The notes: generated by a model not told the origin, from the letters alone. DNA of 64,000 nt from an uncultured Chloroflexia bacterium (GCA_963718085.1 CAVQYA010000002.1:736127-800126), one strand, 5' to 3'. Shown: positions 3,976-64,000, counted from the stretch's first letter. Translations and numbers: made by a program.

Positions 3976-4065
3976 AGTCTGAGCGGCCCGATGGCGCACG
4001 CCGCAATGCCCCTCCGGCGCGTTCGGGCACGGCCCGACGCGGCCTCCTGCTACGATCCGGCCACC

Positions 4066-4581
4066 ATGGACGGTGTCGTGCTCGTTCTGAACCAGAACTA
4101 CGAGCCGCTGAACGTCTGCAACCTGCCGCGCGCCTTCCGGCTCGTGTTCGGCGCTAAGGCGGAGGTCGTCGAGTACGACCACCAGACGATCAGGACGCCG
4201 CGCGCCGCGTACCGGGCCCCCTCCGTCATCCGGCTCCAGCACCATGTCCGGCGCCCCCGCCCGCGGGTGCGCCTGAGTCGGCGCGAGATCTTCTCCCGCG
4301 ATGCCCACACGTGCCAGTACTGCGGGCGGCAGGGCCACGACATGACGCTCGACCACGTGATCCCGCGCCACCGCGGCGGAAACCACACGTGGGAGAACCT
4401 CGTCACGGCCTGCAAGGTCTGCAACCACCGCAAGGGCGGCCGCACGCCGGACGAGGCGCGCATCCGGCTCCTTCGCCCGCCCCACGAGCCGCGGAGCGAC
4501 GTCTACTCCCTCTTCACGCCCTATCTCGCCGACGAGCGCAACGAGCCGTGGCGCGGCTATCTCTTCCTGGACCCGAACTGA
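4066..4581 (+). CDS. HNH endonuclease (McrA-like, standalone).
   Basis: The HNH motif: CQYCG...LDHVIPRHRGGNHTWENLVTACKVCNHRKG. ATG at 4066. Confidence 0.75.
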   Translation: MDGVVLVLNQNYEPLNVCNLPRAFRLVFGAKAEVVEYDHQTIRTPRAAYRAPSVIRLQHHVRRPRPRVRLSRREIFSRDAHTCQYCGRQGHDMTLDHVIPRHRGGNHTWENLVTACKVCNHRKGGRTPDEARIRLLRPPHEPRSDVYSLFTPYLADERNEPWRGYLFLDPN

Positions 4582-4820
4582 CGGACGGCGATCTGACCCC
4601 GCGCGACCGTCGCCCCGCCGCAGCCCCGCCTGCCGACGCCGACGCCGTGCCCGCCCCGCCCACCCGGGCCCTGCCCGCAGGCGCGCCTGCCCGACGCCGA
4701 CGCCGAGCCCGCCGCGGCCACCCGCGCGATTCCGACCGCAGTGCCCGCCGACGCCGGCGCCGTGCCCGCGGGCGTGCCTGCCCGCGCGGCGGCGCGGCCG
4801 CCCGTTCCGTTCCCGCGGCC

Positions 4821-12500: not shown

Positions 12501-14409
<1,909 letters not shown>

Positions 14410-22498: not shown

Positions 22499-23425
22499 AT
22501 GACCGACCTGCCCGCCGGGGAGCCAACCGGCCCGTCGGCCTCGCCGCCCGAGCCACCACCGCCCGTGGCGCCGCAGCCCGATATTCCCGCTCCGGTGCCC
22601 TCGGCCGCTTATGCCATGCCGCCGGTCGCCGCACCGGCCCCGCCGGTCGCCGTCGCTATGTCGGCGCCCCCGCCCGCAGCTCCCTACGCGCCCCCGCCGC
22701 CCGCGGCCGCATACGTCGCGCCCCCGCCCGTGGCCGCCTACGCGCCCCCGCCCATGACCGCCGCGATCGTGACCCGCGCCGGCTCCTGGTTCGCCGGGCT
22801 CGATCCCCGCGGGTGGCGGACCACGATCGCCGTGGGAATCCTGCTGATCGGCACGGTCCTCGGCGCGAACCTCGTGAACGCCGTCGTTCCGCTGCCGTCG
22901 CGGACGGAGGCCGTCAACCCCGGACCGGGCGTGCCCGCCCAGCCGAATCCGAACCCCGGCCAGCCGACGGCGGCCCCGGTCCAGCCTCAGCCGGTGGCGC
23001 CCGGCACGGGCCTCGCCGTCGGATCCGGCGTCACCGTCTACCCACCGGACGGCTGGTCGGTCGTCGGGTCGCAATCCGGCCAGGTCGTGCTCCAGAAGGG
23101 CGCGGGGGTCATCGTGGTCCTCGCGATGTCGTGGGCCAAGTCGCCCAACGATCTCGTCGTCGCCTACCGTGACGCCTTCTTCAAGAATGGCCAGTTCACC
23201 GCCAACGAACCGCAGTCGCTCCAGATCGGCAACGGCATTCCGGCTGCCGGCTTCCAGTACACGGGCGTCTTCGAAGGCTCGCAGGTCGACGGGGCGATCG
23301 TCGCCGGCGCCGCCGGAGGATCGGGCGTCGCCGTGAACGTCATCGCACCGTCGGGCGGGCTCCAGAGCGTGTCCGACGATGCCGACAAGCTCCTCCGCAC
23401 CGTCCAGATCAAGGGAGGCGGCTAG
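22499..23425 (+). CDS. Pro/Ala-rich membrane-anchored protein (hypothetical).
   Basis: SD gggag before the ATG. The N-terminus is a proline-rich repeat (AAPYAPPPPAAAYVAPPPVAAYAPPP), followed by a single TM helix and an extracytoplasmic domain. Confidence 0.55.
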   Translation: MTDLPAGEPTGPSASPPEPPPPVAPQPDIPAPVPSAAYAMPPVAAPAPPVAVAMSAPPPAAPYAPPPPAAAYVAPPPVAAYAPPPMTAAIVTRAGSWFAGLDPRGWRTTIAVGILLIGTVLGANLVNAVVPLPSRTEAVNPGPGVPAQPNPNPGQPTAAPVQPQPVAPGTGLAVGSGVTVYPPDGWSVVGSQSGQVVLQKGAGVIVVLAMSWAKSPNDLVVAYRDAFFKNGQFTANEPQSLQIGNGIPAAGFQYTGVFEGSQVDGAIVAGAAGGSGVAVNVIAPSGGLQSVSDDADKLLRTVQIKGGG

Positions 23426-25038
23426 TGAGCGCCCAGCCCACGACCCTCGGCGAGGGCGTCCCGCCCCGCTGGGGCTACCAGACCTCCTTCTGGCAGCGCC
23501 GCCAGCCCGCGTTCTGGCTCTTCGTCGTCACCCTGGCCGTGACCGGGTTCGTGGCCCTGGGGCAGCAGCTGGAGATGATCAAGGTCGCCCCGACGGCGTG
23601 GTTCATCACCCTGCTCCTCCTGCTTCCGTACGCGATCCCGGTCCTGCTGGTCATCTACCTGATGGACCTCTACGAGCGAGAGCCGCTGAGCATCCTGGTG
23701 GCGGCGCTCCTGTGGGGCGGGATCGCGGCGACCACACTGTCGTTCTACACGAACACCCCGCTCACCGAGCTGATCTTCAAGTTCACCGCCAACCCGACCT
23801 TCACGTCCGAATGGAGCGCGGCGCTCACGGCGCCCTTCGTGGAGGAGGGCTTCAAGGCGCTGGGGCTCATCCTCCTGGTGTCGATCGCCCGCGCCGAGAT
23901 GGACGACGTCCTCGACGGCTTCGTCTGGGGCGCCATGATCGGCCTCGGCTTCCTGCTGGTGGAGGACGTCTTCTACTTCGTCAGGGCGTACGTCGCCACG
24001 GGCGGGTCCTATCGACGGCCTCTTCCAGATCTTCCTCATCCGCATCCTCGGCTGCCGGACCATACAGCCACTTCCTGTACACGGGCCTGATCGGGATGGG
24101 CGTGGCCTTCTACCAGACCCGCCCCGATGTCGCCTGGTCGCGGCGCGTCCAGGTCGCGATCGCCCTGGCCGCCGCCGGGGTCGGTGCGCACTTCTTCTGG
24201 AACTCACCGCTCCTGGGCGAGCTCCTCGGGCGACGGCGGCCCCGTCGGTTGGGCGACGTTCACCATCGTCAAGGGCCTTCCGATGCTCATCGGGCTCCTG
24301 CTCCTGGTCCGCCTCGCCAGGCAGGCGAGAGCACAAGTGGTTCGAAGGCCTGGTTGCCGCGGAGGTCCAGGACGGCACCATCACGGCGGGCGAGCTGCAC
24401 GAGCTCGGCGGGCTCCGCTCCCGGTGGAGCGCGCGTCGCGCGGCCGGGCGGCTCAAGGGGCCGGCGGGAGGGCGGCTCAAGGGCCAGATCCAGCGCCAGC
24501 AGATCAACCTGGCGATGGTCGAGAGCCGGGTCGGGACCGGGGATCACTCGGACGTCAGGCAGCAGCGTGACCTGGTGTGGGGGCTGAAGGCGCAATACGA
24601 CGCGCTGCCGGTCTTCGTCGCGCCGGTCGCGGTCGTGGCGGCCCCGGTGCCCGTGGTCCAGCCGCAGCCCGTGGTCCAGCCGCAGCTCGTCGCCCAGCCG
24701 CAGCCGGCGCAGGTCGCCGCGGTCCCGCAGCCCGTGGTCCAGCCGCAGCCGGCGCAGGTCGCCGCGGCTCGCGCCCGTGGTCGCCGCAGCCGGCGCAGGT
24801 CGCGCCTCCGCCGCCGCCTCCGCCTCCGTCCGCACCCGCCTGGGCTCCGACGCATCGCGTCCCCGACGAGGGAATGGCCGCCTGGGCCGCCCCGGATCCG
24901 TCGCTTCCACCGGCGGTGACGCTGGGCGGCCGGCTCGAGCTGGTCGTGGTCGAGCTGGCCGGCGACTGGGCGCGAGTCGTGGCCGTCAACGGCTGGACGG
25001 GTTGGGTGGACGGCCGCCGGCTGGTCGCCCGGGGGTAG
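23425..25038 (+). pseudogene. PrsW-family intramembrane protease with a PQ-rich linker and a C-terminal SH3b domain. It is interrupted by at least 5 frameshifts.
   Basis: PrsW motifs EEGFKALG, FxxxxxxxxVEDVFYF and HFLYTGL...HFFWNS are split across three frames between about 23990 and 24330. The PVVQPQPAQVAA linker and the SH3b-like GWTGWVDGRRLV lie in further frames. Confidence 0.6.
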
Positions 25039-25189
25039 TCACCGGACGCGCCGGCGCCATCTCGTCGACCACCGGCGCCGGCTCGCTCCGCGTGCCGGCT
25101 TCGGCGATCGTGCCGGCTTCGGCAATCGCGCCGGCGGCGCCGACGGCTTCGGCGATCGCGCCGGCTCCCCGGCGGGCTACGATCTGACC

Positions 25190-27014
25190 GTGGACGCGCC
25201 AGCCCTGATCGAGACGATCCGCCGCTCGGTGATCGGCGACGACGAGGCCGTGGCGGGGCCGTTCGGCGTGCGCCGCGTGACGTACGCGGACTACACGGCG
25301 TCGGGCCGCAGCCTCACCTTCGTCGAGGACTACCTTCGGGACGCCGTCCTCCCGCTCTACGCGAACACGCACAGCGAGTCGTCGGGCACGGGCCTCCAGA
25401 CGACGCGCTTCCGGGCCGAGGCGCGGCGGATCGTGGGCGAGGCCGTCGGCGCCACCGACGAGCACGTCGTCCTCTTCGTCGGCTCCGGGTCGACCGGCGC
25501 CATCGACCGCCTCGTCCACGTCCTGGGGCTGCGCCTGCCGGCCGATCTCGACGCGCGCTACGGCCTCGCCGCGCGGATCCCGGCCGCCGAGCGTCCGGTC
25601 GTCTTCATCGGCCCCTACGAGCACCACAGCAACGAGCTGCCGTGGCGCGAGTCGATCGCCGAGGTGGTCACGATCCCCGAGGACGCCGACGGGCGGATCG
25701 ACCTCGCCCGCCTGGAGGCCGAGCTGGTCCGTCACGCCGGCCGGCCGCTCCTGATCGGCAGCTTCTCGGCCGCCTCGAACGTCACCGGCATCCTCTCCGA
25801 CACCCGGGCGATCTCGGTCCTCCTCCACCGCCACGGCGCGCTCTCGTTCTGGGACTTCGCGGCCGCCGCGCCGTACGTGGCAATCGAGATGGCGCCGCGG
25901 CGGCCCCGGCCGGACGCGACGACGCGGACGGAGCGGCCCGGGCGACCGCGCCGAGGCGGCTCTCGGCGCTCGCGCCGCCGACAACCGCGCCGACCGACCG
26001 CCCCTGCCGCTCCGACGCCGCCCTGGACACGAAGGACGCCATCTTCATCTCGCCCCACAAGTTCATCGGCGGCCCCGGCACGCCCGGCATCCTCGTCGCC
26101 CGCCGCGACCTCTTCCGCAACCGCGTGCCCACCGTGCCCGGGCGGCGGGACCGTGGCCTACGTCAACCCGACGGAGCACGTCTACCTCGACGACGTCGAG
26201 CGCCGCGAGGAGGGCGGGACGCCGGCGATCGTCGAATCGATCCGGGCCGGGCTCGTCTTCGAGCTGAAGGAGGCCGTCGGGGTCGAGGCCATCCGCGCCC
26301 GCGAGGAGGACTTCATCGGCCGGGCAATCGAGCGATGGGGGGCGAACCCGGCCCTCGAGATCCTGGGCAACCCGGCGCTCCCGCGCCTCTCGATCGTCTC
26401 CTTCGTCGTTCGCCACCGCGGCCGCTACCTGCACCACAACTTCGTGGTCGCGCTGCTCAACGACCTCTTCGGCATCCAGTCGCGGGGCGGCTGCTCCTGT
26501 GCGGGGCCCTACGGCCACCGGCTTCTCGGGATCGACCTCGAGCGCTCGCACGAGTTCGAGCGCGAGATCAGCCCGCGGCTGCGAGGGGATCAAGCCCGGC
26601 TGGGTGCGGGTCAACTTCAACTACTTCATCAGCGAGGCGGTCTTCGCGTTCATCCTCGACGCGGTCGACCTGGTGGCCCGCGAGGGCTGGCGACTCCTGC
26701 CGCAGTACCGCTTCGATCCCCCGACCGGGCTCTGGCAGCACCGCGGCGGAGCCGCGGAGCCGCCCCTCTCGCTCCTCGACGTCCGCTACGAGGACGGGGC
26801 CATGCGCTACGCGGCGCACCGCCACCGCGAGCCGGAGTCACGCCTGGCGGACTACCTCGCGGAGGCGCGAGCGCTGCTGGCGGCCCCGCCGCCGACCCCG
26901 GCCGGGGCCGCCGACCCCCTCGACGTCGGCGCCGACTTCGAGCACCTGCGCTGGTTCTGGCTCCCGTCCGAGGCGGCCGAGGAGCTCGCGGCGGAGGGGC
27001 TCGCGACTCCGTAG
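25190..27014 (+). pseudogene. Aminotransferase class V (cysteine desulfurase-like) PLP enzyme with a C-terminal extension. It is interrupted by 3 frameshifts.
   Basis: LYANTHSESSGTG, FVGSGSTGAI and the PLP-lysine region DAIFISPHKFIGGPGTPG are present. The continuation GGTVAYVNP...SRGGCSCAGPYGH...CEGIKPGWVRVNFNYF needs frame changes near 25900-25990, 26150 and 26575. Confidence 0.6.
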
Positions 27015-27181
27015 ACGAGACGACGACAGCGGACGATCCGGAAGGAGGCGATGGATGTACCGGAGCTCGACGTTCGGCCGGCGCGGCGGCCGGATGCTCA
27101 TCGTGGTGGCGCTCTTCGAGCTCGTTCTTGCGGCCGGCTTCTGGCTGATCCTCGGGGGCGTGCCAGGAAGCGGGCCCCGCG

Positions 27182-28057
27182 ATGCTGCTGACGGCCGGGA
27201 TCCTGGGCGGCGTCGGCGTGGTGCTGCTGCTCGCCGGCCTGCTCTGGATGCGCAGCGCCACGAAGAAGGACCGGATCAGCGCCACGGGCGTGGCCGGGAC
27301 CGGCCAGATCATGGGCCTGCGGCAGACCGGGTTGACGATCAACGACCAGCCGCAGGTGGAGCTGGACCTCCTGGTGACCATCCCCGGCCGCTCGCCGTAC
27401 CGGGCGAATGTGAAGGAGATCGTCCCGCTGATCATGCTCAACCGGCTTCAGGGGTCGCTGCCGGTCCGCGTGAACCCCTCGGAGCCGGACACGGTGGTCG
27501 TCCAGTGGGACCAGCCCAACGTGGGGCTCGAGGCGCTCGAAGGGTTCGATCTCGCCGAGATCGCCAGGTCCGGGACGGTTCTCTACGCCGCCGGAGGCGG
27601 GCTGCGCGGCGGGCCGGGCGCGGGCGGGTTCGCCGACCGCGGGCGGGGCGATCCCGGCGCGGGCGGCGGCTCTGGCGCCGGCGTCGACGAGACCCTGGGC
27701 CAGGTCGCGGCGGCGATGGCCGCCGCCGGAGCCGGCGATGCCGCTCCCGTCTACGGCCAGGCGGCGCAGGCCGGCCTCTCGATCGAGCAGCTGCGCGCCT
27801 GGCTCCGCGCGAACGGCCTCGCGGGCACGGCGCGAATCGACCGCCTCATCGACAGCGGCGAGACGGTGGGCGACGACCGCCTCTTCACGATGACCACGAC
27901 CGTGTCGATCCCCGGCCGCGCGCCGTTCGCCACGGAACCCTCGGCGGCCATGGTGCCCCTCGCGAAGGTCGGGCGGATCGCCGTCGGCGTCTCGCTCCCG
28001 GTGCGCGTCGCGCCCGACAACCCGGACCTGCTCATGTTCGAGTGGGACCGCATCTGA
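27182..28057 (+). CDS. Membrane protein with an internally duplicated domain (hypothetical). It may start at 27056 in another frame.
   Basis: TM helix, then two related domains (LVTIPGRSPY...LPVRVNPSEPDTVVVQWD and TVSIPGRAPF...LPVRVAPDNPDLLMFEWD). An upstream TM helix, MYRSSTFGRRGGRMLIVVALF, is in a different frame. Confidence 0.5.
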   Translation: MLLTAGILGGVGVVLLLAGLLWMRSATKKDRISATGVAGTGQIMGLRQTGLTINDQPQVELDLLVTIPGRSPYRANVKEIVPLIMLNRLQGSLPVRVNPSEPDTVVVQWDQPNVGLEALEGFDLAEIARSGTVLYAAGGGLRGGPGAGGFADRGRGDPGAGGGSGAGVDETLGQVAAAMAAAGAGDAAPVYGQAAQAGLSIEQLRAWLRANGLAGTARIDRLIDSGETVGDDRLFTMTTTVSIPGRAPFATEPSAAMVPLAKVGRIAVGVSLPVRVAPDNPDLLMFEWDRI

Positions 28058-28615: not shown

Positions 28616-29653
28616 ATGGAGCCGAACGTCTTCCTGCCGCTCGCGTCGTCGCTGCTGAGCTTCGTGTTCGCCGTCTTCCTGCTCGACCAGTGGCGGGAGC
28701 GGCGCAGGCCGTACCAGCTGATCTGGACGATCGGGATGCTCATGTACGGCGTCTCCGCGGGGACGGAGTTCCTGGGCGGGGCGCTGGGCTGGAGCGAGCC
28801 GCTCTACCGCGCCTGGTACCTGACCGGCGCGGTCTGGGTCGCCGGATGGCTGGGCCTCGGCACGATGTACCTGCTGGCCAAGACGCGCTTCGGCTACGGC
28901 GCGGCCATCTCTCTCCTGCTGGCCGGCCTCTTCACGTTCCTCTCCTGGCGGAAGAACGACTACGCCGACAGCGGCGCCTCCCCGTACCTCTACCTGTTGA
29001 TCGCGGTGGTCGCCGCGGCCGTGATCGCCGTCGAGACCTACCGGACGAAAGGCCGCTGGGCGCACCTCGCGGGCGGGCTGATCGTGGCCGGGACTCTGGC
29101 CTCCATCCCGATGGTGATGCTCGCGTCGCTCGCCGCGCCCGGCTACGCCCTCGACGCGACCACCGGCATCCCCAGCGGCGAGCTCTTCCCGGGCTACGTC
29201 CGGCTCCTCACGCCCTTCTTCAACATCACCGGCGGCTTCGCCCTGGTCCTGGGCGCCCTCTACTCCGCCTACGTCTTCATGCCCAAGAAGCGCCTCGTCC
29301 GGTACGACCTCCGGCGTGACCAGGGCCTCGCGCGCTTCCTGGCGAACCTCGCCGTCTCGCCGTTCGCCATCGCGGTCAACCTGGTCGCGTCGGTCCCCGG
29401 CGCGGTCGTGGCCCTCTCCCGCGGCGAGCTCCACAGCCGGGTCCCGTCAACCATCCTCCTGGCGATCGGCGGCTTCGTGCCGTCCCTCACCGGCAGCCTG
29501 GCGCGCTTCGGAATGACCGAGGCGTTCTTCCTCGGCGAGCTGGCGGGGGTCGTCTTCCTGTTCGCCGGCTTCCTCGTCTCGATCGAGGTCTTCCGGGAGA
29601 TCCGGATCCCGTTCACGCGGGTCGTGCTGCACACGCGCCGCGGCGCCGCGTAG
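28616..29653 (+). CDS. Polytopic integral membrane protein (hypothetical).
   Basis: SD agaagagga before the ATG at 28616. About 8 TM helices. No family recognised. Confidence 0.6.
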   Translation: MEPNVFLPLASSLLSFVFAVFLLDQWRERRRPYQLIWTIGMLMYGVSAGTEFLGGALGWSEPLYRAWYLTGAVWVAGWLGLGTMYLLAKTRFGYGAAISLLLAGLFTFLSWRKNDYADSGASPYLYLLIAVVAAAVIAVETYRTKGRWAHLAGGLIVAGTLASIPMVMLASLAAPGYALDATTGIPSGELFPGYVRLLTPFFNITGGFALVLGALYSAYVFMPKKRLVRYDLRRDQGLARFLANLAVSPFAIAVNLVASVPGAVVALSRGELHSRVPSTILLAIGGFVPSLTGSLARFGMTEAFFLGELAGVVFLFAGFLVSIEVFREIRIPFTRVVLHTRRGAA

Positions 29654-31175: not shown

Positions 31176-31250
31176 GCCGACATAGCTCAGCGGTAGAGCA
31201 GCTGTTTCGTAAACAGCAGGTCCTCGGTTCAAATCCGAGTGTCGGCTCCA
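31176..31250 (+). tRNA. tRNA-Thr, anticodon CGT.
   Basis: Cloverleaf read by hand. Acceptor gccgaca/tgtcggc, D-stem gctc/gagc, anticodon stem gctgt/acagc with loop ttCGTaa, T-arm ctcgg-ttcaaat-ccgag, and an encoded CCA. Confidence 0.85.
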
Positions 31251-53509: not shown

Positions 53510-54592
53510 ATGTTGAGACTCAAGAAGCAGCTCTTTGCCGTGCCGATCGGCTTCGCCCTCGCAGCGCTCCTTGCGCTGCCCATGACCGTCCTCGGCAACA
53601 CGTCGGCTGCCATCGCCCAGACCGGCGGCATGTCGGTGACGCTGCCGCTGGCGCCGCTTCTCGGCGGGCCCCTGACGGTCGAGGTCAAGCTCGACGGCAC
53701 CGGCAACGTCAGCCAGGTGAACCTCAACCCGATCGGGACCTACTCGGCGACGAAGCTTGGACCGCACGCGGTGACCTTCGCCAAGGGCGACGGGACTACC
53801 CAGGTCTCGATCAAGGCGAAGGGCGACAAGCTCTCCGTCAAGGCCTCGGCCGGCACGCTCGACGGCCTCCTCGGGGCCGGGACGTGGTCCGCCGACGTCT
53901 TCGCGACCGGCACGAAGTCGACCGTCGCCTACACGGTCGGCAAGGCCGCGGACGGGACTCCGACCATCGCCGTCAACTCGGTGACGCCGGCTGCCGGCAT
54001 CACCGTCGTGCAGGATCCGCCCAAGACGGAGACCGAGGACCACGAAGCCAGCGCCTCGGTCAGGGTCGCCTTCAGCGCCAACGGCTACACCAAGAAGCTG
54101 AGCATCAGCGTCTCGGTCGACACCGAGGGCACCCACAAGGCCAGCCTCAAGATCACCCTGTCCGGCAAGGACCGCCAGAAGCTGTCCGGCACCCTCGCCG
54201 AGATCGGTCTCGGACTGCACACGTGGACCGGCGCGCTCTGCGACGGCAAGGCCGTCGGCATCAGGTACAACGTCCTTGACACCGGCGCCGTCTCGTTCGT
54301 GGATGCCACCGGTGGGACCACGACGGTCAAGTCGGGCGAGCACGGGTTCTCCGTCCGCTTCGACGGCACCAAGGCCAGGGTCAAGGTCAGCCTCCAGAAG
54401 TCGGACGACGGCACCTGGACGCTCAAGGTCGAGGCCAGGACCGGCAAGTGCAAGAACACTCCGGCGCCGCTGCCCACGGTCAACACGCCCGTGGCGCCCG
54501 GGGCCGACAAGGCCGGCGACAAGGACAAGAAGCCCGACCCGTCGGGCTCCCACGACGGCAACGGCAAGGGCAACGGCAAGGACGGCCATTGA
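53510..54592 (+). CDS. Secreted Lys/Thr-rich beta-rich protein (hypothetical).
   Basis: SD caggagga before the ATG. Signal peptide ending AIAQT. The composition (K, T, G, S) is unusual for this genome. The C-terminus is a KDKKPDPSGSHDGNGKGNGKDGH tail. Confidence 0.65.
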   Translation: MLRLKKQLFAVPIGFALAALLALPMTVLGNTSAAIAQTGGMSVTLPLAPLLGGPLTVEVKLDGTGNVSQVNLNPIGTYSATKLGPHAVTFAKGDGTTQVSIKAKGDKLSVKASAGTLDGLLGAGTWSADVFATGTKSTVAYTVGKAADGTPTIAVNSVTPAAGITVVQDPPKTETEDHEASASVRVAFSANGYTKKLSISVSVDTEGTHKASLKITLSGKDRQKLSGTLAEIGLGLHTWTGALCDGKAVGIRYNVLDTGAVSFVDATGGTTTVKSGEHGFSVRFDGTKARVKVSLQKSDDGTWTLKVEARTGKCKNTPAPLPTVNTPVAPGADKAGDKDKKPDPSGSHDGNGKGNGKDGH

Positions 54593-55263
54593 GCACTTCG
54601 CCTCCCGGGCGAGCGACCCGAGGATGGCTCCGCTTCGGCGGGGCCATCCTCTTCGTTCTGGCGGTCGCCGCCTGCGGACCGGCAGCGACCGGGTCGGTGG
54701 GGCCGAGTGCGTCCCCGCTCGCGCCCGGACCGGCGAGCGTGCCCCCGGCGCCGAGCGGGGCGGCGGCGCCCGCCACCGCGCTTCTCGGAGCAGCCCTGGA
54801 GTCCCTGCGCACGGCAGCCGCGTTCGAGACGCGGGTGGAGGTTGACGGGACAGTCGTCGTCTCGGCCACAGGCCGTTCCGTCGGCGCCGCCAGCCAACTC
54901 ACCGTGACCACCGCCGACCGGACGGTCGAATACCTGCAGGTTCCCCCGCGGGCGTGGGCTCGCGAGCCGGGCGCGGCGTGGGTGCTCCTCGGGACCGACC
55001 AGGCACCCGCCGCCCCGCTCGACGTCCTCTCCGACCCGCTGACCCTAGCGACGGCCCCCTCGACCGGGGGGCTGGCGTCCTTCGCCGCGACGTACCCCGC
55101 AGCTGCGCTCGGCCTGGAGGGCGACCCCGTCGCCGTCACGATCACCGTCGACGGCTCGGCCGTGACATTCCGCTACGAGTCGACCGCGTCGGGACACCGG
55201 ACGGCGTCGACCACGACGCTGCGTCCCGCGGCCGCCGACCCGATCGTCGCGCCCGCACCCTGA
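54589..55263 (+). CDS. Lipoprotein (hypothetical). The TTG start overlaps the upstream stop.
   Basis: n-region RATRGWLRFGG, h-region AILFVLAVAA, lipobox Cys. The start codon is inferred. Confidence 0.5.
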   Translation: MSTSPPGRATRGWLRFGGAILFVLAVAACGPAATGSVGPSASPLAPGPASVPPAPSGAAAPATALLGAALESLRTAAAFETRVEVDGTVVVSATGRSVGAASQLTVTTADRTVEYLQVPPRAWAREPGAAWVLLGTDQAPAAPLDVLSDPLTLATAPSTGGLASFAATYPAAALGLEGDPVAVTITVDGSAVTFRYESTASGHRTASTTTLRPAAADPIVAPAP

Positions 55264-55504: not shown

Positions 55505-57570
55505 GTGGAGCCGCGCGTGATCCCCGCGTCAGATCCCGTCGTCGCCGGCGACCTGGTCGCGTGGCTCTGGGCGGGCGCCGCGGCCTCGTTCGCGGCGGCG
55601 GCGATCGTCGCCCTCTCCCGGCTTTCCGCGCGCCTGGCGCCGATCGTGGCGACCGTCGGCGGGATCCTCGCCACGGCTTTCGGCGGTGCCCTGGTGGTGA
55701 CCGGAACGACGTTCTCCGTGAGCGCCGGCCAGGTTCTCGGGATGGCCCCGATCGACCTGCGATACGACGGGCTGAGCGGCGTCTTCCTCGTGGCCTTCGG
55801 CCTTTCGGTCGACGGCGGCGTCCCTGTCGATCGTCGGCTCGCGGGCGCGGACTCGCCTCGAAGGGTGTGCCTTCCCCCTCTTCCTGGCCAGCATGTGCTG
55901 GTCCTCGGGGCGCCGCCAACGCGTTCGCCTTCCTGCTGGCCTGGGAGCTGATGGCCCTCCTGTCGGCCGCTCCTCGTCGTGGGCCTTCGCCCCAGCCGGG
56001 CGGTCATCTCGGCCGGCTACCTCTACCTCGCGATGACCCACGTGGCGACCGCCGCACTCCTCGTCGCCTTCGCGATCCTGGCAGCCGGCAACGGCGGCGC
56101 GCTCGACTTCGAGGCGTGGCGGACCGGCAGCGGGGCGCTGGCTCCGCGGCCTGCGCGACGTCGTCTTCCTGCTGGTCCTGGTCGGGTTCGGCACCAAGGC
56201 CGGTGCGATGCCCCTGCATGCGTGGCTGCCGCGGGCCCACCCGGTGGCGCCGTCGCACGTCTCGGCGGTCATGTCGGGGGTGATGATCAAGATGGGGATC
56301 TACGGGCTCGTCCGGATCGTCGTCGACGTCCTCGGCGGCGGCCCGGACTGGTGGGGGCTCCTGGTCCTCGGCGATCGGCGCGCTGTCGGCCGTGCTCGGG
56401 CGTCCTCTACGCCCTCATGCAGCACGACCTCAAGCGGCTGCTGGCGTTCCACAGCATCGAGAACATCGGGATCATCCTGCTCGGCCTCGGCAGCGCGCTG
56501 GTCCTCGGGGCCCACGGCGCCACGGAGCTGGCGGCGCTCGCGCTGACCGCCGCGCTCTTCCACTCGGTCAACCACGCCGTCTTCAAGACGCTGCTCTTCC
56601 TGGGCGCGGGGGCGGTCCTGCACGCGACCGGCCTGCGCGACCTCAACCGGCTTGGCGGCCTGGCCCGAGCGCATGCCGCTGACGGCCCTCACCTTCGGAG
56701 TCGGCGCCGCGGCGATCAGCGGCCTGCCCGCCGCTCAACGGCTTCGCCAGCGAGTGGCTCGTCGTTCCAGGGCCTGCTCGGGACGCTCGGCCAGCGACGC
56801 GATCCCGCCGCTCGATCCGCTCGCGGCCGCGCGCGACGATCGGCGCCCTGGCCCTGACGGCGGCCCTTGCCGTCGCCTGCTTCGTGAAGGCGACCGGGGT
56901 CACGTTCCTCGGGCTGCCGCGGAGCGCGGCGGCCGCGGCGGCCCACGAGGCGAGCGCGGCCTGCCCAGGCCGCGATGGCGCTCCTCGCCGGCTGCCTGCC
57001 TGGCCCTCGGGCTCGGCGCCGGCCCCGTGGTGGGCGGCCCTGACGACCGTGTCCCGCGCCGTCCTGCGGGCCGCCAGCGCTCCCGGGCTCCCGATCGCCG
57101 GTCGCGGCGCTGACCTCGGCACCCGGGTCGGGGGACGGCGGCCGACGTTCGCGGCGCTCGCCGTCGGGCTGCTCCTGCTCGGCACGATCGCGGGCCTCGG
57201 GTTCATCGCGTCCCGCTCGCCGGCAGCGAGCCCGCCGGGTCGACACCTGGACGTGCGGCATCGCGCCCGAGCCCGCCTTCCAGTACACGGCGACCGAGCT
57301 TCGCGAAGCCGATCCGGCTCTTCTTCCGCGGCTCCTCCTCCCCGAGCGCGCAGGTCGAGGTCGAGTACCACCCGGGCACGGCCTTCCCCGACCTCGATCC
57401 GGTACCGGAGCGAGATCACGCTCCTCCTCGAGGACCGGGTCTTCCGGCCGGCCCACCGCGCTGAGCCTCCGGGTGGCGCAGTTCGCCCGGCGACTGCAGG
57501 GCGGGGCCATCCAGCTCTACCTGGCCTACATCGTGATCGCCGTCCTCGTGCTCCTCCTGTGGGCCCGATG
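55505..57570 (+). pseudogene. hyfB: HyfB/NuoL-like proton-pumping membrane subunit of a group-4 [NiFe]-hydrogenase. It is fragmented by about 8 or more frameshifts.
   Basis: Conserved blocks, collinear but alternating among all three frames: ANAFAFLLAWELMALLS, AGYLYLAMTHVATAALLVAF, GFGTKAGAMPLHAWLPRAHPVAPSHVSAVMSGVMIKMGIYGLVR, LYALMQHDLKRLLAFHSIENIGIIL, PLNGFASEW, CFVKATGVTF, and the C-terminal AIQLYLAYIVIAVLVLLLW. Confidence 0.65.
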
Positions 57571-58540
57571 AGCGCGGTGGGACGCGGTCAGCGACCATCG
57601 TCCTCGCCGCGGCCTGCAGCTCGCCGTCGTTCCTCGCCTTCGCGCCGCTTCTCGCCGGCACGATCCGGCGGACGAAGGCGCGGCTCCAGGGCCGCCGCGG
57701 ACCGGCCCTCGTCCAGCCGTACCGGGACCTCGCCAAGTGGTGGGGCAAGGCGCCCCTGGAGAGCAGCACGGCGGGGCCGGTCGCGCGGCACGCCCCGGTC
57801 TTCGTGCTCGGAGTCGATCGCTCGTCGCCGCTCTCCTCGTCCCCTTCGCTGCCGGGCGGCCGCCGCTCGTCGGCTGGGGCGACCTGTTCGTCGTCGTCGG
57901 GCTGCTGGCGGCCGCCCGGTTCGCCCTCGCCCTCGCGGCGCTCGACGCCGGCGGCGCGTTCGGCGGGATGGGCAGCAGCCGCGACGTCGCCATCTCCGCG
58001 CTGGCCGAGCCCGGCGCTCGTGCTCGCGCTGGCCGGTGCCGCGCTCGCGGCAGGGTCGAGCGACCTCGGCACGATCAGCGCCGTTCGGCCTCCGCGCGGG
58101 CCTCGGCCTGCTGGGTCCGACCCACCTCCTTGCCGCGGTGGCCTTCGCGATCGTCGTCGTCGCCGAGACCGGCCACCAGCCAGTCGACAACCCCGACACC
58201 CACCTCGAGCTCACGATGATCCACGAGGGCATGCTGCTCGAGGCGTCCGGCCGCTCGCTGGCGCTCCTGGTCTTCGCCTCCGAGCTGAAGCTCGTGCTGC
58301 TCGGCCGCGCTCTTCGTGGCGGTCTTCGCTGCCGTTCGGAGCGGCGACGGAGATCTCCCTCGGCCCGGTCCTCGTCGGGACGGTCGTCGGGCTCGGCAAG
58401 CTCCTGCTCGTGGGGCAGGCCCTGGCGCTCCTCGATGCGTCCGTCGCCAAGATGCGGATCCTCGCCCTGCCCGATCTGCTCGGGCGCGGCGTCGCTCCTC
58501 GCGCTGGTCGGCCTCGGCGGCTCGGATCCTCGTGGCGCCA
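57568..58540 (+). pseudogene. hyfC: HyfC/NuoH-like membrane subunit, multiply frameshifted.
   Basis: Blocks TIRRTKARLQGRRGPALVQPYRDLAKWW, DLFVVVGLLAAARFALALAALDAGGAFGGMGSSR, AVAFAIVVVAETGHQPVDNPDTHLELTMIHEGMLLEASGRSLAL and VAKMRILALPDL lie in three different frames. Confidence 0.6.
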
Positions 58541-59208
58541 TGATCCTCGACCCGCTGGCCGCCGCCCGCCTGCTCGATGCCTGCGCCGCCGGAATCGTGC
58601 TGGTCGGCGTCCTGATCGCCGGCACGCGGTCGATCGGCCGGGCGATCTGGCTCGTGGCCGTCCAGGGCGATCCTTCTCGGCGCCGCCGCCGTGGCGCGTC
58701 GGGCTGGCCACGGGAACCGCCCATCTCGTCGTCGGGGGTCTCCTGACGTTCGCGACCAAGGGGATCGTGGTCCCCCTGATCCTCGGCCGGATCCTCCGCC
58801 AGAGCCCGGTCCGCGTCGAACGCCATCCGTACCTCGGACCGCGCGTCTCGCTCGTCGTCGCGATCGTCATCGTCTTCGCCGCGACGGCGGCGGTCGACGG
58901 CGCCGCGCTCGGCGGTCGACTCGAGGCGCCGAGCGCGCTGCCGGCGGCGGTCGCCGAGGTGCTGACCGGCCTCCTTGTCGCCATGACCCGGCGCAAGGGC
59001 CTCTCGATCGTGGTCGGGCTCCTCGTCTTCGAGAACGGCCTCAGCCCTGACCGCCTTCAGCCTGACCTACGGGATGCCCCTCGTGATCGAGCTCGGGATC
59101 GCCTTCGACCTCCTCGTCGCCGTCGTGGTGATCTGGGTCTACGCCCGGCGGATGCTGACGGTCCTCGGCTCGCTCTCGACCGATCGCCTGCGGAACCTGC
59201 GCGGATGA
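58540..59208 (+). pseudogene. hyfE: HyfE-like membrane subunit, frameshifted.
   Basis: Blocks LVVGGLLTFATKGIVVPLILGRIL, GLLVAMTRRKGLSIVVGLLVFENGLS and LVIELGIAFDLLVAVVVIWVYARRML lie in differing frames. Ends at TGA 59206-59208. Confidence 0.55.
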
Positions 59209-60700
59209 ACGAGCTGCTCGTCGCCGCCATGCTGCTTGCCCCGCTGCTGGGCGGGCCTGGTCGCCTGGCGCCGGCGGGGCCGGGCCGTGGAGCTCGTCGC
59301 CACGGGCTCGAATGAGCGTCGCCGTGCTCTCGGGCTGCGCCCTCGGCGCCCTCGCCCTGGCTGGCGGTCGTCTGCGCGCCTTCGACGGGCTCGTCGTGGT
59401 CGACGCCCTGGGCGCCTGGCTGCTGGTGCTGACCGCGATCGTCGCCGGGCTCGCCATGGCCGCCTCGCCGCGCTACGTGCGTCACGAGCTGGCCGCCGGC
59501 GCGTTCCGGCCGCGCGACGAGGGCCGCTTCTACGCGCTTCTTCCTGTGGTTCGTGACCAGCCTGCTCGCCGTTCCCCTCGCTCGACAACCTGGGCCTGCT
59601 GTGGGTGGCGATCGAGGCCACGACCGTCGTCTCGGCGCTGCTCGTCGGGATCACCCGGACGCCGGACGCGATCGAGGCGGCCTGGAAGTACCTGATCCTC
59701 GGCACGGTCGGGGTCGGCTTCGCCCTGCTCGGGACGCTGCTCGCCTACGCCTCGTCGGTGCGGGTCCTCGGCGAGAGCTCGGACGCCCTCAACTGGACGC
59801 GGCTGATCTCGATCGCTCCCCTGCTCGATCCGAGCCTCCTGCGCCTGGCCTTCGTCTTCGCGCTGGCGGGCTACGGCACGAAGATCGGCCTGGTGCCGTT
59901 CCACACGTGGCTTCCGGATGCGCACAGCCAGGCACCGAGCCCGGTCAGCGCGCTGCTGTCCGGTGTCTCGCTCGACCGCCGCCCTCTACGCCCTGGTGCG
60001 CTTCCACCTGGTCGCGGTCGGAGGGCTCGGGCCCGGCCTTCTCGTCGAACCTGCTCGTCGCGTTCGGGCTCCTCAGCCTGGCCGTCGCCCTGCCCTTCAT
60101 GTCGTGCAGGAGGACCTCAAGCGCCTGCTCGCCTACTCGAGCATCGAGCACATGGGCCTCCTCGCGCTCGGGCTGGGCTTCGGCGGGCCGCTCGCGCTCG
60201 CTCGGGGTGAGTCCTCCACGTCGGCCTGCACGCGGTCGCCAAGGCGACGCTCGTTCCTCTCCGCCGGCGAGCTCGTCCAGCAGTACGGCAGCCGCCGGCT
60301 CTCGCGGATCCGCGGAACGCTCGCCCGAGCGCCCGTCGCGGGCGGGGCCGTCGGCGGCGGGATCATCCTGCTCGGCGGCCTGCCTCCCTCGGGGATCTTC
60401 GTGACCGAGTTCGCGATCGTCGTCGGCGGCGTGCTGCAGGGCTATGCGCTCGCCGCCGCCCTCGCCGCCGGCCTGCTCGCGGTGGCGTTCGTCGCCGCTC
60501 GCCTTCCACGGGACCCGCCTCCTCTGGGGGCAGGCCGGACCCGGCGTCGCGGCCGGCGCCGCGGGCCGGGCGACGGCGGTTGCGACTCGCGGTCCCACTC
60601 CTCGCGGTGGCCGTGCTCGGGCTGTGGACGCCCGGCCCGCTGGCAGCCGCCCTCGACGCGGTCCGCGCCGTGCTCGGTACGTCGGGGCGTCCGGTGGCTG
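59207..60700 (+). pseudogene. hyfF: HyfF/NuoN-like antiporter-type membrane subunit, multiply frameshifted.
   Basis: Blocks WVAIEATTVVSALLVGI..AIEAAWKYLILGTVGVGFALLGTLLAY, AGYGTKIGLVPFHTWLPDAHSQAPSPVSALLSGV and VQEDLKRLLAYSSIEHMGLLALGLGFGGPLA lie in alternating frames. The 3-prime boundary is approximate. Confidence 0.6.
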
Positions 60701-62355
60701 AGCGGACGAAGCGCCGACGGGCGGCGGCTGTCGGGGCGACCGCGGGCGGGGCGGCGGCTGTCGGGGCGACGGCGGCGGCGGAGGCCGTCGGCGCTGCCCT
60801 CGCCCGCCACGTCTCGCTCTCGGGCTCGGACGACGAGCTTCTCCTTCCCGTGTCGCGCGACGAGCTCGTGCCCGACCGTCCGGGCGCTCGCCGAGCTCGG
60901 CGCCCGCCACGTCATGCTCGCTCGGCCTCGACCTTCGGGGACTCGACCCGGGCGCCGGCACTGGCCGTCGAGGAGGTCCTCTACCTCCCGGGCGGACCCG
61001 CTCGTCCGCGCTGCGGGCCGACCTCGCCAGCGGACGGGCCGTCCTACCCGTCGCTCACGTCGCTCCTGCCGGCTGCGCAGTGGGACGAGCGCGAGGTACG
61101 GGACCTCTTCGGGATCGTGCCGACCGGCCACCCGGATCTGCGGCCGCTCGTCATCCACGAGCCGGCAATGCGGTCCGGCCCACCCGCTCCTGAAGGTCCC
61201 GCCGGCGGTGCCGCCGCCGGCGCGGCGCCCCGTTCCGGCCGTTCGTCGCCCAGGGCGAGGGGGTCTACCAGCTGCCGGTCGGCCCGATCCACGCCGGGAT
61301 CATCGAGCCGGGCCACTTCCGCTTCTCGGCAGTCGGCGAGTCGGTCCTCCACCTCGACGCCCGGCTCTTCTACACGCACCGCGGCCTCGAGCGAGCTCGT
61401 CGAGGGCCGCTCGTTCGACGGCGCGCTGCTCGTGCGTCGAGCGTGCCTGCGGCGTGTGCACGGTCACCCACGCCGACTGCGTTCAGCCGGGCCGTCGAGC
61501 GGCTGACCGGCACCGTCATCCCGCCCCGGGCGCGGCTGGCCCGGATCCTGCTGGCAGAGCTCGAGCGGCTCTACAACCACGTCGGCGATCTCGGCAACAT
61601 CTGCGCCGGCGTCGGGTTCCATTTCGGGACCTCGCAGTCTCGGCTGGCAGAAGGAGCGGCTGCTGCGCCTGAACGAGGCACTGACCGGCCATCGCTACCT
61701 CACCGGGGTCGTGGCGCCGGGCGGGCTTCGCGCTGCGACCTTGACGGCGGGGGCCTCGCGCGAACTGGGCGCCTCGGTGCGAGGAGATCGACCACGACGT
61801 CCGCGCGATCGTCCGCCTCCTCGTCCGGTCCGAGAGCTTCATGCGGACGCCTCCACGGGACCGGCATCGTCGCGCGGCGAGGACGCCCGCCGACTCGGCG
61901 CCGTCGGCGTGGCGGCACGGGCGAGCGGGCTGCCCGTCGACCTTCGCCGCGACCGCCCGTCCGACGGCTACGAGGACCTCGAGGTCCCGTCGATCACCGC
62001 AGGCCGGCCGGTGACGTCGCGGCGCGGTTCCACGTCCGAGCCCAGGAGGCCGTCGGTCTCGCCGGGCTGATCCGCGAGTCTCTCGCCCGCCTTCCCGGCG
62101 GCCCGATCCGCGCCCCGCTGGCGCGCACGTCCGGCGCCCGGCGCGTCCACGGTCGCGGGCGTCGAGGGCCCACGCGGGGCTTCGTGGGCCTGGCTCATGG
62201 CCGGGCCAGACGGCCGCGTCGAGCGCTTGCACCTGCGGTCCGGCTCGTTCGCGAACTGGCCGGTCGTGGCAGCGGCAGCCCCCGGCAACCTCGTCCCGGA
62301 CTTCCCGCTCATCAACAAGAGCTTCGAGCTCTGCTACGCCTGCACGGATCGCTGA
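60700..62355 (+). pseudogene. hyfG: Group-4 [NiFe]-hydrogenase large subunit (HycE/HyfG-like, NuoC-NuoD fusion), multiply frameshifted.
   Basis: Blocks LPAAQWDEREVRDLFGIVPTGHPDLRPLVIHE, VGPIHAGIIEPGHFRFSAVGESVLHLDARLFYTHRGLE, the N-terminal Ni-site RACGVCTVTHA, ARLARILLAELERLYNHVGDLGNICAGVGF and the C-terminal Ni-site SFELCYACTDR are all present but distributed over three frames. The 5-prime boundary is approximate. Confidence 0.65.
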
Positions 62356-62358
62356 CCG

Positions 62359-62700
62359 ATGCCCCTCGACGTCGCTCCGCCGCCTGCTCCTGCCGCTCCG
62401 CGAACCGGTCGTCACGTCGCGCTACCCGGACGCGCCGCCCCTGCTCGCAGCCGGCGGTGCGCGGCCTTCCGGAGGTCGATCCCGGGCCGGTGCGAGCGGA
62501 CGGCCGCCTGCGTCGCCGCCTGCCCGACCGGTGCGATCACGCTGGCGGCAGACCGGCTGGTCGATCGACGCGGGAAGCTGCGTCTTCTGCGGCGCCTGCG
62601 CGCTGGCCTGTCCGAGCGGCGGCGATCCGGCTCGGGCTCGCGCGTCGAGCTGGCCGGCGCGCGATCGCTGACGACCTGGTCGCTCCGCACCGGCCGTCGA
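62359..62700 (+). pseudogene. hyfH: HycF/HyfH-like 2x[4Fe-4S] ferredoxin subunit, frameshifted.
   Basis: Two cluster motifs lie in different frames: CERTAACVAACPTGAITL and GSCVFCGACALACPSG. The 3-prime boundary is approximate. Confidence 0.55.
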
Positions 62701-63245
62701 GCGCGGCCGGACGATGAGCCTGGACCGGGTCGCGCGGCTCGAGCCGGCGCGCCGGCTCGAGCGACGACCGCCGCCGCGCGTGCTCGGGATCGCTCGGCGC
62801 GGCAGCTCGGGCGATCGCTCCACGTCCGCCACCTCGACACGGGCTCCTGCAACGGCTGCGACTGGGAGATCGCGGCGCTGCTCAACTCCGTACCACGACG
62901 TCCAGCGCCTGGGGATCGACTTCGTCGCCTCGCCGCGCCACGCCGACCTGCTCCTGGTGACCGGGATCATGACCCGCAACCTGGAGGAGGCCGCTCGACG
63001 GACCTACGAGGCGATGCCGGAGCCCCGGCTGGTGGTGGCCGTCGGCGCCTGCGCGATCAGCGGCGGTGTGTTCGCCGGATCCGTACGCGGGGCGGGACGG
63101 CGTCGGCGACGTCCTTCCCGTGGACGTCTTCGTGCCCGGCTGTCCGCCGCGGCCCGAGGCGATCATCGAGGGGATGCTCCTGGCGGTCGACCAGCGCGGG
63201 CAGAGCCGTCCGCGGACCCGGCAGGGTGAGAACGCCGCGCGCTGA
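62700..63245 (+). pseudogene. hyfI: HycG/HyfI-like (NuoB-like) hydrogenase small subunit, frameshifted.
   Basis: Blocks [79 protein letters not shown] and [20 protein letters not shown] lie in three successive frames. Ends at TGA 63243-63245. The 5-prime boundary is approximate. Confidence 0.6.
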
Positions 63246-63305
63246 ACGATGGCACGAATCGAAGCTCGATCGGCGGGCTGATGGGCGGCGGGAGCGCGTT
63301 CGAGG

Positions 63306-63413
63306 TGCGCAGGCGGCCCGCGGCCCGGTCAGCGCCGGCGGCGGCGCGCCACGGGGGAGTGCGCAGGCGGCCCGCGGCCCGGTCAGCGCCGGCGACGGCG
63401 CGCCACGGGGGAG
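63306..63413. repeat. Tandem repeat of 54 bp, 2 copies, just downstream of the hydrogenase operon.
   Basis: gtgcgcaggcggcccgcggcccggtcagcgccggcgRcggcgcgccacgggggag at 63306 and 63360. Confidence 0.7.
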
Positions 63414-63782
63414 AAGTACGGCTGCACGAGCCTGGCCTGCCCGGACGGCGCGGCCGTCGGGTCCGCCAGGGCCTTCTTCGCCGCTGCGTCCTGCCGCGCG
63501 ACGAGGCGCAGGGCGGCCAGCGCCCATTCGATGTCACCCAGGACCGGGGCGGGCAGCCCGACGGCGGGCGGATCGCAGAACCTTCGCCGCGGCTTCCCGC
63601 TCGCCCTGCTGCCCGACGCACAGGATGACCCGGACGGCAAACGCGGCGAGCACGTCGTTCGCCAGCCACGGTTCCACGCCGTCGATCGCCCGCTTGCCGA
63701 AGGGGGCGATCTGGTCCCGGAACTGGATCCGGCGAGCGGGCGACGCCCCTTGTGCTTCCTCAAGGAGACCGGCGAGCTGCAT
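63383..63782 (-). pseudogene. Possible hydrogenase maturation endopeptidase (HycI/HyaD-like), frameshifted. The assignment is weak.
   Basis: Minus-strand segments VRVILCVGQQGE...AAAKVLR and LPAPVLGDIEWALAALRLVARQDAAAKKALADP lie in two frames. Resemblance to the LVLGVGN...ILDGG pattern is loose. Confidence 0.2.
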
Positions 63783-63940
63783 GGAACCCTCCCAGGTCGA
63801 TCGGCGGGCGCGGCGAGCGCCTTCGACGCTCCCGAGCCTGGCTGCGGCTGGAAGTCGATCATACCGAAATACGCTATTTCTTGCAACATTCAGTAGTTGC
63901 GCTGGTTCGCCGGGCCCGGTACTGTTCCCGCATGTCTCGC

Positions 63941-64000
63941 AACCAGCGTCCTGACGACCCCGAGGGCCTCCGCCAGTTCAAGGCCGAGTTCTTCAAGGCG
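63941..64000 (+). CDS. Partial CDS at the window edge, possibly an ArsR-family regulator.
   Basis: Starts MSRNQRPDDPEGLRQFKAEFFKA..., and the FKA..F start is reminiscent of ArsR/SmtB N-termini. Only 20 codons are visible. Confidence 0.25.

Follow-up and report, generated by a model that had tools for sequence, protein, structure and literature searches.

The closest described systems are the hydrogenase-4 and formate hydrogenlyase complexes of Escherichia coli (Hyf/Hyc, group 4a; 7Z0S/7Z0T), which have the module set and order HyfB, C, E, F, G, H, I, including a large subunit that is a NuoC-NuoD fusion with both CxxC motifs, a NuoB-like small subunit, and a 2x[4Fe-4S] subunit. The same modules were found in the same order at 55517-63245 in the window, by which we mean the whole 64,000-nucleotide stretch of DNA from an uncultured Chloroflexia bacterium that was analyzed. 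Operons with this seven-gene order also occur in metagenome-assembled genomes (MAGs) of Limnocylindrales/Chloroflexota, at 69-87% amino acid identity to the window. In these relatives, with which the original prediction had proposed a comparison, the orthologous operons are intact and each gene occupies one continuous open reading frame (ORF), whereas the window requires 71 frame corrections. The intact operons used for comparison were L081 (ENA k141_1803427), L001 (MFD02416.bin.1.274), L002 (fen_1046), and that of the JGI contig of P0003. An ArsR-type regulator is encoded downstream of the operon in L001 and L081, and a small minus-strand gene downstream is common to L081 and the window. Unlike E. 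coli Hyf, the window operon is without HyfA, HyfD, HyfJ, HyfR, and FocB; no counterparts of HyfA, HyfD, or HyfJ were found within 55517-63245, and no formate dehydrogenase adjoining the operon was seen in the window. The literature gave nothing decisive on whether this lineage belongs to HydDB subgroup 4a or 4f. The operon itself is unremarkable, belonging to a hydrogenase family widespread in Limnocylindrales-like MAGs, and its broken appearance is, judging from the sequence, almost certainly a data-quality artefact.

The operon was reconstructed with a custom frameshift-aware protein-to-DNA aligner using the intact operon of L081 as the reference; a plain tblastn search with the reference ORFs was dropped in favor of this aligner because wrong-frame high-GC ORFs produced spurious matches. 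All seven genes are on the plus strand. The first encodes a hyfB-like antiporter-type membrane subunit (55517-57571, 22 frame changes) that covers residues 1-675 of the 675 in L081 HyfB at 79.9% identity, matches the NCBIfam model NF005086 ('hydrogenase 4 subunit B', 616 bits, profile positions 14-666 of 669), and yields PF00361 fragments in two different frames. It is followed by a hyfC-like membrane subunit of the NuoH family with approximate ends (about 57572 to 58542, 8 frame changes; residues 5-312 of 320, 87% identity, PF00146 fragments), and nucleotide alignment places a further single-base insertion near 58516 that merges the hyfC frame with hyfE. The hyfE-like small membrane subunit (58540-59208, 3 frame changes) covers all 221 residues of its L081 counterpart (85.5% identity) and matches NF008556 ('hydrogenase 4 membrane subunit', 95.7 bits), and a second antiporter-type subunit resembling HyfF (59205 to about 60690, 12 frame changes) covers residues 1-491 of 492 at 82.5% identity and matches both NF005044 ('hydrogenase 4 subunit F', 402 bits) and PF00361. 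The large catalytic subunit, a HycE/HyfG-like NuoC-NuoD fusion, is encoded at 60760-62355 (16 frame changes) and aligns with residues 1-526 of the 526 in the L081 protein (77.7% identity); once reconstructed, it is 82% identical to the intact protein P0001 over 100% coverage (E = 3.7e-271). Its best match among solved structures is subunit 5 of the E. coli formate hydrogenlyase (FHL) complex (HycE, 7z0s_E, E = 1.4e-76), and PF00374, PF00346, and PF00329 are found in every close homologue. The last two genes encode a HycF/HyfH-like 2x[4Fe-4S] subunit (62359-62671, 7 frame changes; L081 H residues 1-101 of 114), with NF009053 and NF006076 as FHL iron-sulfur subunit matches, and a HycG/HyfI-like NuoB-type small subunit (62714-63245, 3 frame changes; L081 I residues 1-166 of 170) that matches NF005012 and the NuoB family TIGR01957.

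The original prediction of a complete, collinear Hyf/Hyc-type operon of seven subunits was borne out by this alignment in gene order and position, as was its statement that the diagnostic motifs are readable. Both Ni-binding motifs of the large subunit were located (L1, RACGVCTVTH, 61442-61471; L2, ELCYACTDR, 62326-62352), as were the motifs CVAACPTGAI (62509-62538) and CVFCGACALACPSG (62579-62620) of the HycF/HyfH-like subunit and the cysteine motifs GSCNGCDWE (62842-62868), GACAISGG (63044-63067), and PGCPPRPE (63135-63158) of the small subunit. The locus contains the parts that define a group-4 [NiFe]-hydrogenase: a large subunit with the L1 and L2 CxxC pairs for the Ni-Fe center, a NuoB-like small subunit with proximal-cluster cysteines together with a 2x[4Fe-4S] ferredoxin-like subunit, and a Complex-I-like membrane arm composed of the antiporter-like HyfB and HyfF, the NuoH-like HyfC, and HyfE. 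The top NCBIfam names for the window subunits are hydrogenase-4 subunits B, E, F, and H, with every score below its curated cut-off (616 against 667, 95.7 against 136, and 402 against 610), so the assignment stops short of equivalog-level identity with E. coli Hyf.

The deposited sequence does not provide uninterrupted reading frames for these genes. Relative to L081, to which amino acid identity is 78-87% across the operon, the 71 frame changes consist of 62 of +1, six of +2, two of -1, and one of -2; the count is 68 if L001 serves as the reference. As a control, the same aligner reported 0-1 shifts per locus on the DNA of L001 and L002. The dozens of frameshifts that had been predicted are spaced at a mean of 104 bp (median 73 bp, coefficient of variation 0.83, which is close to random), and within the initial 900 bp of hyfB, for which at least six had been claimed, exactly six were mapped (55812, 55897, 55970, 56148, 56374, and 56399). 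The claims that no segment is deleted and that in-frame stops are few, if any, also held, as the frameshift-aware alignment found no stops in the operon and essentially no missing residues or segments. Single-base shifts are overwhelmingly insertions (62 of 64; binomial p = 2e-16 for 62 versus 2). Nucleotide alignment to the intact contig L084 (91.8% identical) gave 26 single-base insertions and two deletions in the window, and L083 and L084 together, both intact metagenome contigs (92-94% identical), gave 34 and two, respectively. If the shifts were sites of programmed recoding (ribosomal +1 frameshifting, transcriptional slippage, or RNA editing), the genes could still be expressed, and the perfect conservation of the conceptual protein once the shifts are removed fits this reading. 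Nothing else speaks for it, and 71 roughly randomly spaced sites without a common motif, located outside the homopolymer tracts that slippage requires, in genes whose intact orthologues (L001, L081, L083, and L084) need no correction, render recoding so improbable that it is effectively refuted.

The frameshifts extend beyond the hydrogenase genes. The window was scanned with a frameshift HMM based on GC at third codon positions (GC3) alone and with one based on codon usage; because these scans are noisy in intergenic regions, with a false-call rate of about 0.5 per kb on the intact control loci, calls standing alone were disregarded. They revealed a second patch of single-base insertions on the plus strand at 24012-27167, identified by domain splits and by frameshift-aware and nucleotide alignments. 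Of the genes that it breaks, a PrsW-family protease (23425-25032, plus strand) carries five shifts that split PF13367 across frames, a class-V aminotransferase (25190-27011, plus strand) carries three that split PF00266, and the gene next to the aminotransferase (27055-28054, plus strand) carries one. Compared with the intact JGI contig L083 (93.5% identity), this patch contains eight single-base insertions and no single-base deletions in the window. The aminotransferase is 96% identical to the intact metagenomic protein P0121, and its homologues among the matches listed have 78-94% identity, several being from named Limnocylindrales/Chloroflexi MAGs. On the other side of the operon, the small unrelated minus-strand gene downstream of hyfI (63389-63782) has one +1 frameshift at about 63556 and aligns with residues 1-130 of the 130-residue product of L081 9889-10281 (minus strand) at 75% identity, so that the error patch reaches past the hydrogenase genes into a gene on the opposite strand. 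The two patches, spanning 55.8-63.6 kb and 24.0-27.2 kb, contain an additional base roughly every 100-350 bp and run on regardless of where genes end or which strand they are on; full-length conserved proteins are obtained when the insertions are removed. The surroundings had been described as clean, which is accurate for the upstream ORF at 54589-55263 (an end-to-end alignment in one stretch to 229-residue homologues) and for several multi-kb genes elsewhere in the window with complete domain architectures, but not for the second patch and the minus-strand gene. The lesions are not confined to a dispensable locus, as the PrsW gene, the conserved aminotransferase, and two other genes also carry them. 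GC content was rejected as the cause of the patches, their values of 0.72-0.77 being within the range of clean regions.

Genuine decay would be expected to leave other traces. If the hydrogenase, PrsW, and aminotransferase genes had been lost very recently through a burst of insertions on kb-scale tracts, the frameshifts would stand in the deposited sequence as they do, and the lack of stops and deletions would be in keeping with so recent an event. However, 71 indels should be accompanied by hundreds of unconstrained substitutions, and none were found in excess. Over 2054 codons, the window lineage has 59 lineage-specific amino acid changes and its intact sister L081 has 72, and the nucleotide changes at codon positions 1, 2, and 3 number 55, 39, and 125 in the window, where third positions thus still predominate, and 70, 40, and 178 in L081. 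All 106 columns without variation among 115 intact homologues are retained in the reconstructed large subunit. The relaxed selection of a decaying locus was therefore not observed, with no excess of non-synonymous change and none of the 106 invariant columns lost; nor was a decay-type lesion spectrum, in which deletions equal or exceed insertions, sizes vary, and nonsense mutations and segment loss occur. Base substitutions exceed indels roughly ten-fold, and bacterial indel spectra were reportedly found to be deletion-biased by Mira, Ochman and Moran in 2001 and by Kuo and Ochman in 2009. Pseudogenization must also accommodate the breakage of an aminotransferase that is strongly conserved in many related MAGs and lesions that enter a gene on the opposite strand, and we consider it very unlikely. 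Because of the insertion bias, the lack of relaxed selection, the unrelated genes hit, and the signature of the inserted bases, the frameshifts are very probably consensus errors of the deposited assembly rather than mutations of the organism, whose seven-gene group-4 membrane-bound [NiFe]-hydrogenase operon is most likely intact. The original prediction had left open decay or an error-dense assembly; the latter is strongly favored, and decay is disfavored by the single-base insertions, the normal selection, and the unrelated genes hit. The further claim that the organism has lost its H2-evolving capacity is not supported, given the insertion bias, the normal selection, and the lesions in unrelated genes, and the frameshifts are best read as assembly errors.

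The inserted bases have a distinctive signature. Among the 26 precisely mapped insertions, only two have an identical neighboring base, compared with a background of 44% (p = 7e-5), and insertions of the homopolymer-error type (454, Ion Torrent, Nanopore) were rejected on account of this avoidance of identical neighbors. The textbook Nanopore error is the homopolymer deletion, from which the pattern in the window differs. A third codon position adjoins 25 of 30 insertions, and 19 of the 30 (63%) are a C next to a G in the wobble position, or a G next to a C in that position, versus 15-23% expected at random (p ~ 2e-6); no common insertion motif was seen among the sites. To our knowledge, no natural process yields about 95% single-base insertions outside homopolymers. 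If the insertions were nonetheless real, they would imply an undescribed mutational process that works along kb-long tracts, for instance an error-prone polymerase or repair pathway, inserts single bases almost only beside wobble positions, and has very recently inactivated the hydrogenase operon together with several further genes in an uncultured Chloroflexota lineage, before substitutions accumulated; we regard this as exceedingly improbable.

Owing to the C/G wobble signature, the insertions can be read as pairs of strain alleles placed next to each other when the consensus was collapsed. The contig would derive from long metagenomic reads to which at least two coexisting strains contributed, and the differences between these strains in the patch segments would be mostly synonymous C/G changes at wobble positions. 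The consensus step would retain both alleles side by side (CTC/CTG becoming CTCG), and each polymorphism would give rise to one +1 insertion. Provided that the frameshifts are artefacts, we consider the chance that collapsed strain alleles produced them to be slightly better than even. The wobble-allele model misses some sites unless some of the polymorphisms are non-synonymous, because A or T is involved in a few cases and five of the 30 insertions fall between the first and second positions of a codon. An artefact could also arise in the absence of strain collapse, from a low-depth or poorly polished long-read consensus in which, for example, a gap was bridged by a few noisy reads and residual insertions were left. 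Errors that are patchy at the kb scale, indifferent to gene and strand boundaries, and nearly randomly spaced (coefficient of variation 0.83) are consistent with this origin, as is the status of indels as the commonest error type in long reads (PMC8445201). A related long-read-style contig with a 'contig_N' name, L082, likewise has a frameshift patch of its own, which mixes insertions and deletions; it affects ABC-transporter genes of which the window has intact copies, and L082 is itself intact where the window is broken. Random noise, however, should introduce deletions and substitutions, and the window has very few of the former and no excess of the latter; it should also place about 44% of insertions beside an identical base and 15-23% in C/G wobble pairs, in contrast to the 2 of 26 and 63% observed. 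We view a consensus error of this kind as a tenable but somewhat doubtful account.

Collapsed allelic variants are documented to cause indel errors and apparent frameshifts (PMC8445201). In the case described by Cosentino et al. 2021 (PMC8445201), indels arise where nearby variants differ between haplotypes and truncate ORFs, and full-length genes are obtained when the haplotypes are separated or the errors corrected. That case is a diploid eukaryote, whereas the putative haplotypes of the window would be co-assembled bacterial strains, and the doubling of a C/G wobble allele into CG or GC is a signature of the window that we infer here from sequence. If strain collapse is the correct reading, the patches mark segments where co-occurring strains differ. 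Taken at face value, the deposited sequence would receive at least seven pseudogene annotations and an energy-converting hydrogenase would be scored as missing from the organism, a conclusion that the evidence indicates is wrong. The case is of practical use for quality control, as an otherwise clean contig of nearly a megabase can hide kb-scale stretches of +1 insertions, which are recognizable from sequence alone by a bias toward insertions only, selective constraint at its normal level, and C/G wobble bases that are doubled. The collections searched contained no independent assembly of this population at near identity; the best match to the large subunit is 82% identical. The source contig is 947,596 bp long and encodes a database protein (P0241) 100% identical to an intact protein of the window. 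Given its length (947.6 kb) and Limnocylindrales-like lineage, the source is probably a long-read MAG. Relatives stem from Nanopore MAG catalogues, and related MFD-LR MAGs, including the sample of L001, were assembled from Nanopore reads only with Flye and one round of Medaka (PMC12313526).

Across the whole window the G+C content is approximately 73%. In a GC3 frame plot, the upstream genes (53.5–55.2 kb) held a single steady coding frame, and from ~55.8 kb onward the frame switched every 100–300 bp. Hydrogenase fragments were recognisable in three-frame translations, alternating among the frames, and Pfam matches to PF00361 and PF00146 were likewise fragmented over different frames. The hyfBCEFGHI-type operon (55517–63245, forward strand) was then aligned using our own protein-to-DNA dynamic-programming aligner, which lets the frame move by 1 or 2 nt in either direction. 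With the proteins of L081 (ENA contig k141_1803427), the closest complete reference operon, all seven subunits aligned end to end at 78–87% identity, with no in-frame stops, almost no residue gaps, and 71 frame changes (62 of +1, 6 of +2, 2 of −1, and 1 of −2). When the operon of the metagenome-assembled genome (MAG) L001 was used as the reference, 68 frame changes were found; the same aligner and queries placed 0–1 shifts in the DNA of L001 and L002 (fen_1046), a second MAG. The shifts were spaced nearly at random (mean 104 bp, median 73 bp, coefficient of variation 0.83). The original prediction had described this locus correctly, from the six shifts within the initial 900 bp of hyfB to the readable Ni-binding and NuoB-type motifs, and the frameshifts are real in the deposited sequence. 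At the hyfF–hyfG junction, a 30-nt tandem repeat (60719–60775; 1.9 copies, 96%) encodes a repeated AAAVGATAGG-like peptide.

Intact counterparts were identified by searching species-representative genomes with a 131-amino-acid in-frame HyfF fragment, which matched two Chloroflexi/Chloroflexia MAGs, L001 and L002, at 89% identity. In L001 (MFD02416.bin.1.274) the operon is uninterrupted and is followed by an ArsR-type gene, the start of which is also present in the window (63932–64000). When the reconstructed large subunit served as a protein query, only intact homologues of ~470–620 amino acids were retrieved, the best of which, P0001, matched at 82% identity and 100% coverage (E = 3.7e-271), and two of the homologues' contigs carry the same seven genes, all intact. 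With the frames corrected, the genes make up a standard Hyf-like group-4 [NiFe]-hydrogenase module from which HyfA, HyfD, and HyfJ are absent. Its top NCBIfam matches are to hydrogenase-4 subunits B, E, F, and H and to the NuoB family, none of them reaching the equivalog cut-off, and the best structural relative of its large subunit is HycE of the E. coli FHL complex (7z0s_E). By homology, such an enzyme would link a low-potential donor to proton reduction and translocate ions in the process. A single ORF of 268 amino acids is read in L001 (12649–13455) for the fused HycF-like and NuoB-like subunits, with a +2 shift placed by the aligner at 12988; two separate genes (114 and 170/180 amino acids) are present in L081 and in the P0003 contig. 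The fusion is either real or an indel error of that Nanopore MAG.

A decayed hydrogenase and the consequent loss of H2 evolution had been proposed from the broken frames, with a locally error-dense stretch of assembly as the alternative. Three independent tests, of indel direction, sequence constraint, and locus specificity, speak against decay. Natural bacterial indel spectra are deletion-biased, and in the protein-guided alignment the single-base events comprised 62 insertions versus 2 deletions (p = 2e-16). The same direction was seen in nucleotide alignments to intact metagenome contigs of short-read style, with 26 single and 2 double insertions versus 2 deletions relative to L084 (91.8% identical, hydrogenase locus) and 8 insertions versus none relative to L083 (93.5% identical, a JGI contig covering a second patch of frameshifts). 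Because base substitutions are about ten-fold commoner than indels, 71 real indels would bring hundreds of unconstrained substitutions. A relative-rate test that covered 2054 codons and took L001 and L002 as outgroups assigned 59 lineage-specific amino acid changes to the window and 72 to the intact sister L081, with nucleotide changes at the three codon positions of 55/39/125 and 70/40/178, respectively. In the reconstructed large subunit, all 106 columns invariant among 115 intact homologues were retained; a mean of 0.28 such columns was lost in leave-one-out controls, and ~7 losses would be expected at 9% neutral divergence (probability of none, ~8e-4).

The third test concerns genes unrelated to the hydrogenase. 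In a codon-usage HMM scan, same-strand frame switches clustered a second time at 24–28 kb, where the PrsW and Aminotran_5 domains found by Pfam searches are both divided between frames. Frameshift-aware alignment placed five shifts in the PrsW gene (23425–25032), three in the aminotransferase gene (25190–27011), and one in the gene that follows. The aminotransferase is 96% identical to the intact homologue P0121, and its hit list is full of homologues of 78–94% identity, several from named Limnocylindrales or Chloroflexi MAGs. Beyond hyfI, an unrelated minus-strand gene (63389–63782) contains one +1 shift. With PrsW, the aminotransferase, and this minus-strand gene also hit, the error patches ignore gene function, boundaries, and strand. 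The surroundings had been considered clean, which holds for the upstream ORF at 54589–55263 and for several large regulators and kinases but not for the 24–28 kb cluster or the minus-strand gene. Given the insertion bias, the normal constraint, and the damage to unrelated genes, decay with loss of H2 evolution is unsupported.

A technical origin is also indicated by the relatives, those with names being Candidatus Limnocylindrales or Chloroflexota MAGs. The related ENA contig L082 (contig_135755) has its own patch at 3400–5700, where ~15 small indels, insertions and deletions mixed, fragment the genes for an ABC-transporter ATPase and permease, whose counterparts in the window (19.9–22.2 kb) are intact. 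Conversely, PrsW and the aminotransferase are intact in L082 and broken in the window, and such reciprocal breakage is the pattern expected from a technical cause. L001, the closest operon-bearing genome, comes from the Microflora Danica long-read catalogue, a product of Nanopore sequencing, Flye assembly, and a single Medaka round (PMC12313526). We consider a consensus artefact of long-read metagenome assembly to be very probably the cause of the frameshifts.

Homopolymer extension was ruled out as the insertion type by the non-identical neighbours: 16 of 17 unique protein-resolved insertions differ from both adjacent bases, and an identical base adjoins only 2 of 26 nucleotide-resolved insertions (background 44%). 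Among 30 precisely mapped within-gene insertions, 25 adjoin a third codon position, and in 19 a C and a G stand side by side, one of them being the wobble base (typically CTG to CTCG or GCC to GCCG), a pairing found in 15–23% of simulated random insertions in the same genes (p ~2e-6). Protein-guided analysis found C/G pairs along the whole operon as well. Long-read assemblies are known to acquire indel errors and apparent frameshifts when nearby allelic variants are collapsed (PMC8445201). Such C/G pairs are what one would expect if the consensus kept both alleles of synonymous C/G polymorphisms between co-assembled strains, and this would also account for the absence of added substitutions, for the kb-sized stretches, which resemble strain-variable or recombined segments, and for the clean remainder of the contig. 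Strain-allele collapse is, by a modest margin, the sub-mechanism we favour; its main technical rival is an unspecific stretch of low read depth or poor polishing.

Several further features were noted. The gene at 28616–29483 (87.5% identical to L082 13427–14299) has a single +1 insertion ~12 codons before its end, near 29446, which appears to abolish the normal stop and prolong the ORF as far as 29653. Lying outside both dense patches, the insertion has the look of an isolated error. Relative to L083, the window has extra segments of 60, 71, 55, and 19 nt (24653–24834 and 25918–26011) in the PrsW tail, which is rich in proline and valine, and in a variable aminotransferase loop. As some overlap 18–45-nt tandem repeats, these segments probably reflect genuine length polymorphism together with one or two more single-base errors. 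Between hyfI and the ArsR-type gene lies a near-perfect 54-nt tandem duplication (63305–63413; 2.0 copies, 98%), overlapping by ~25 nt with the 3′ end of the minus-strand gene at 63389–63782, a homologue of a 130-amino-acid gene. Other tandem repeats occur at 6198–6443 (72-nt unit, 3.4 copies, 97% identical) and 2506–2806 (94-nt unit, 3.2 copies, 86%). Rfam matched the window only once, at a tRNA gene (31176–31247; 72.6 bits) that adjoins two minus-strand AAA-ATPase genes of the DUF234 and DUF4143 types.
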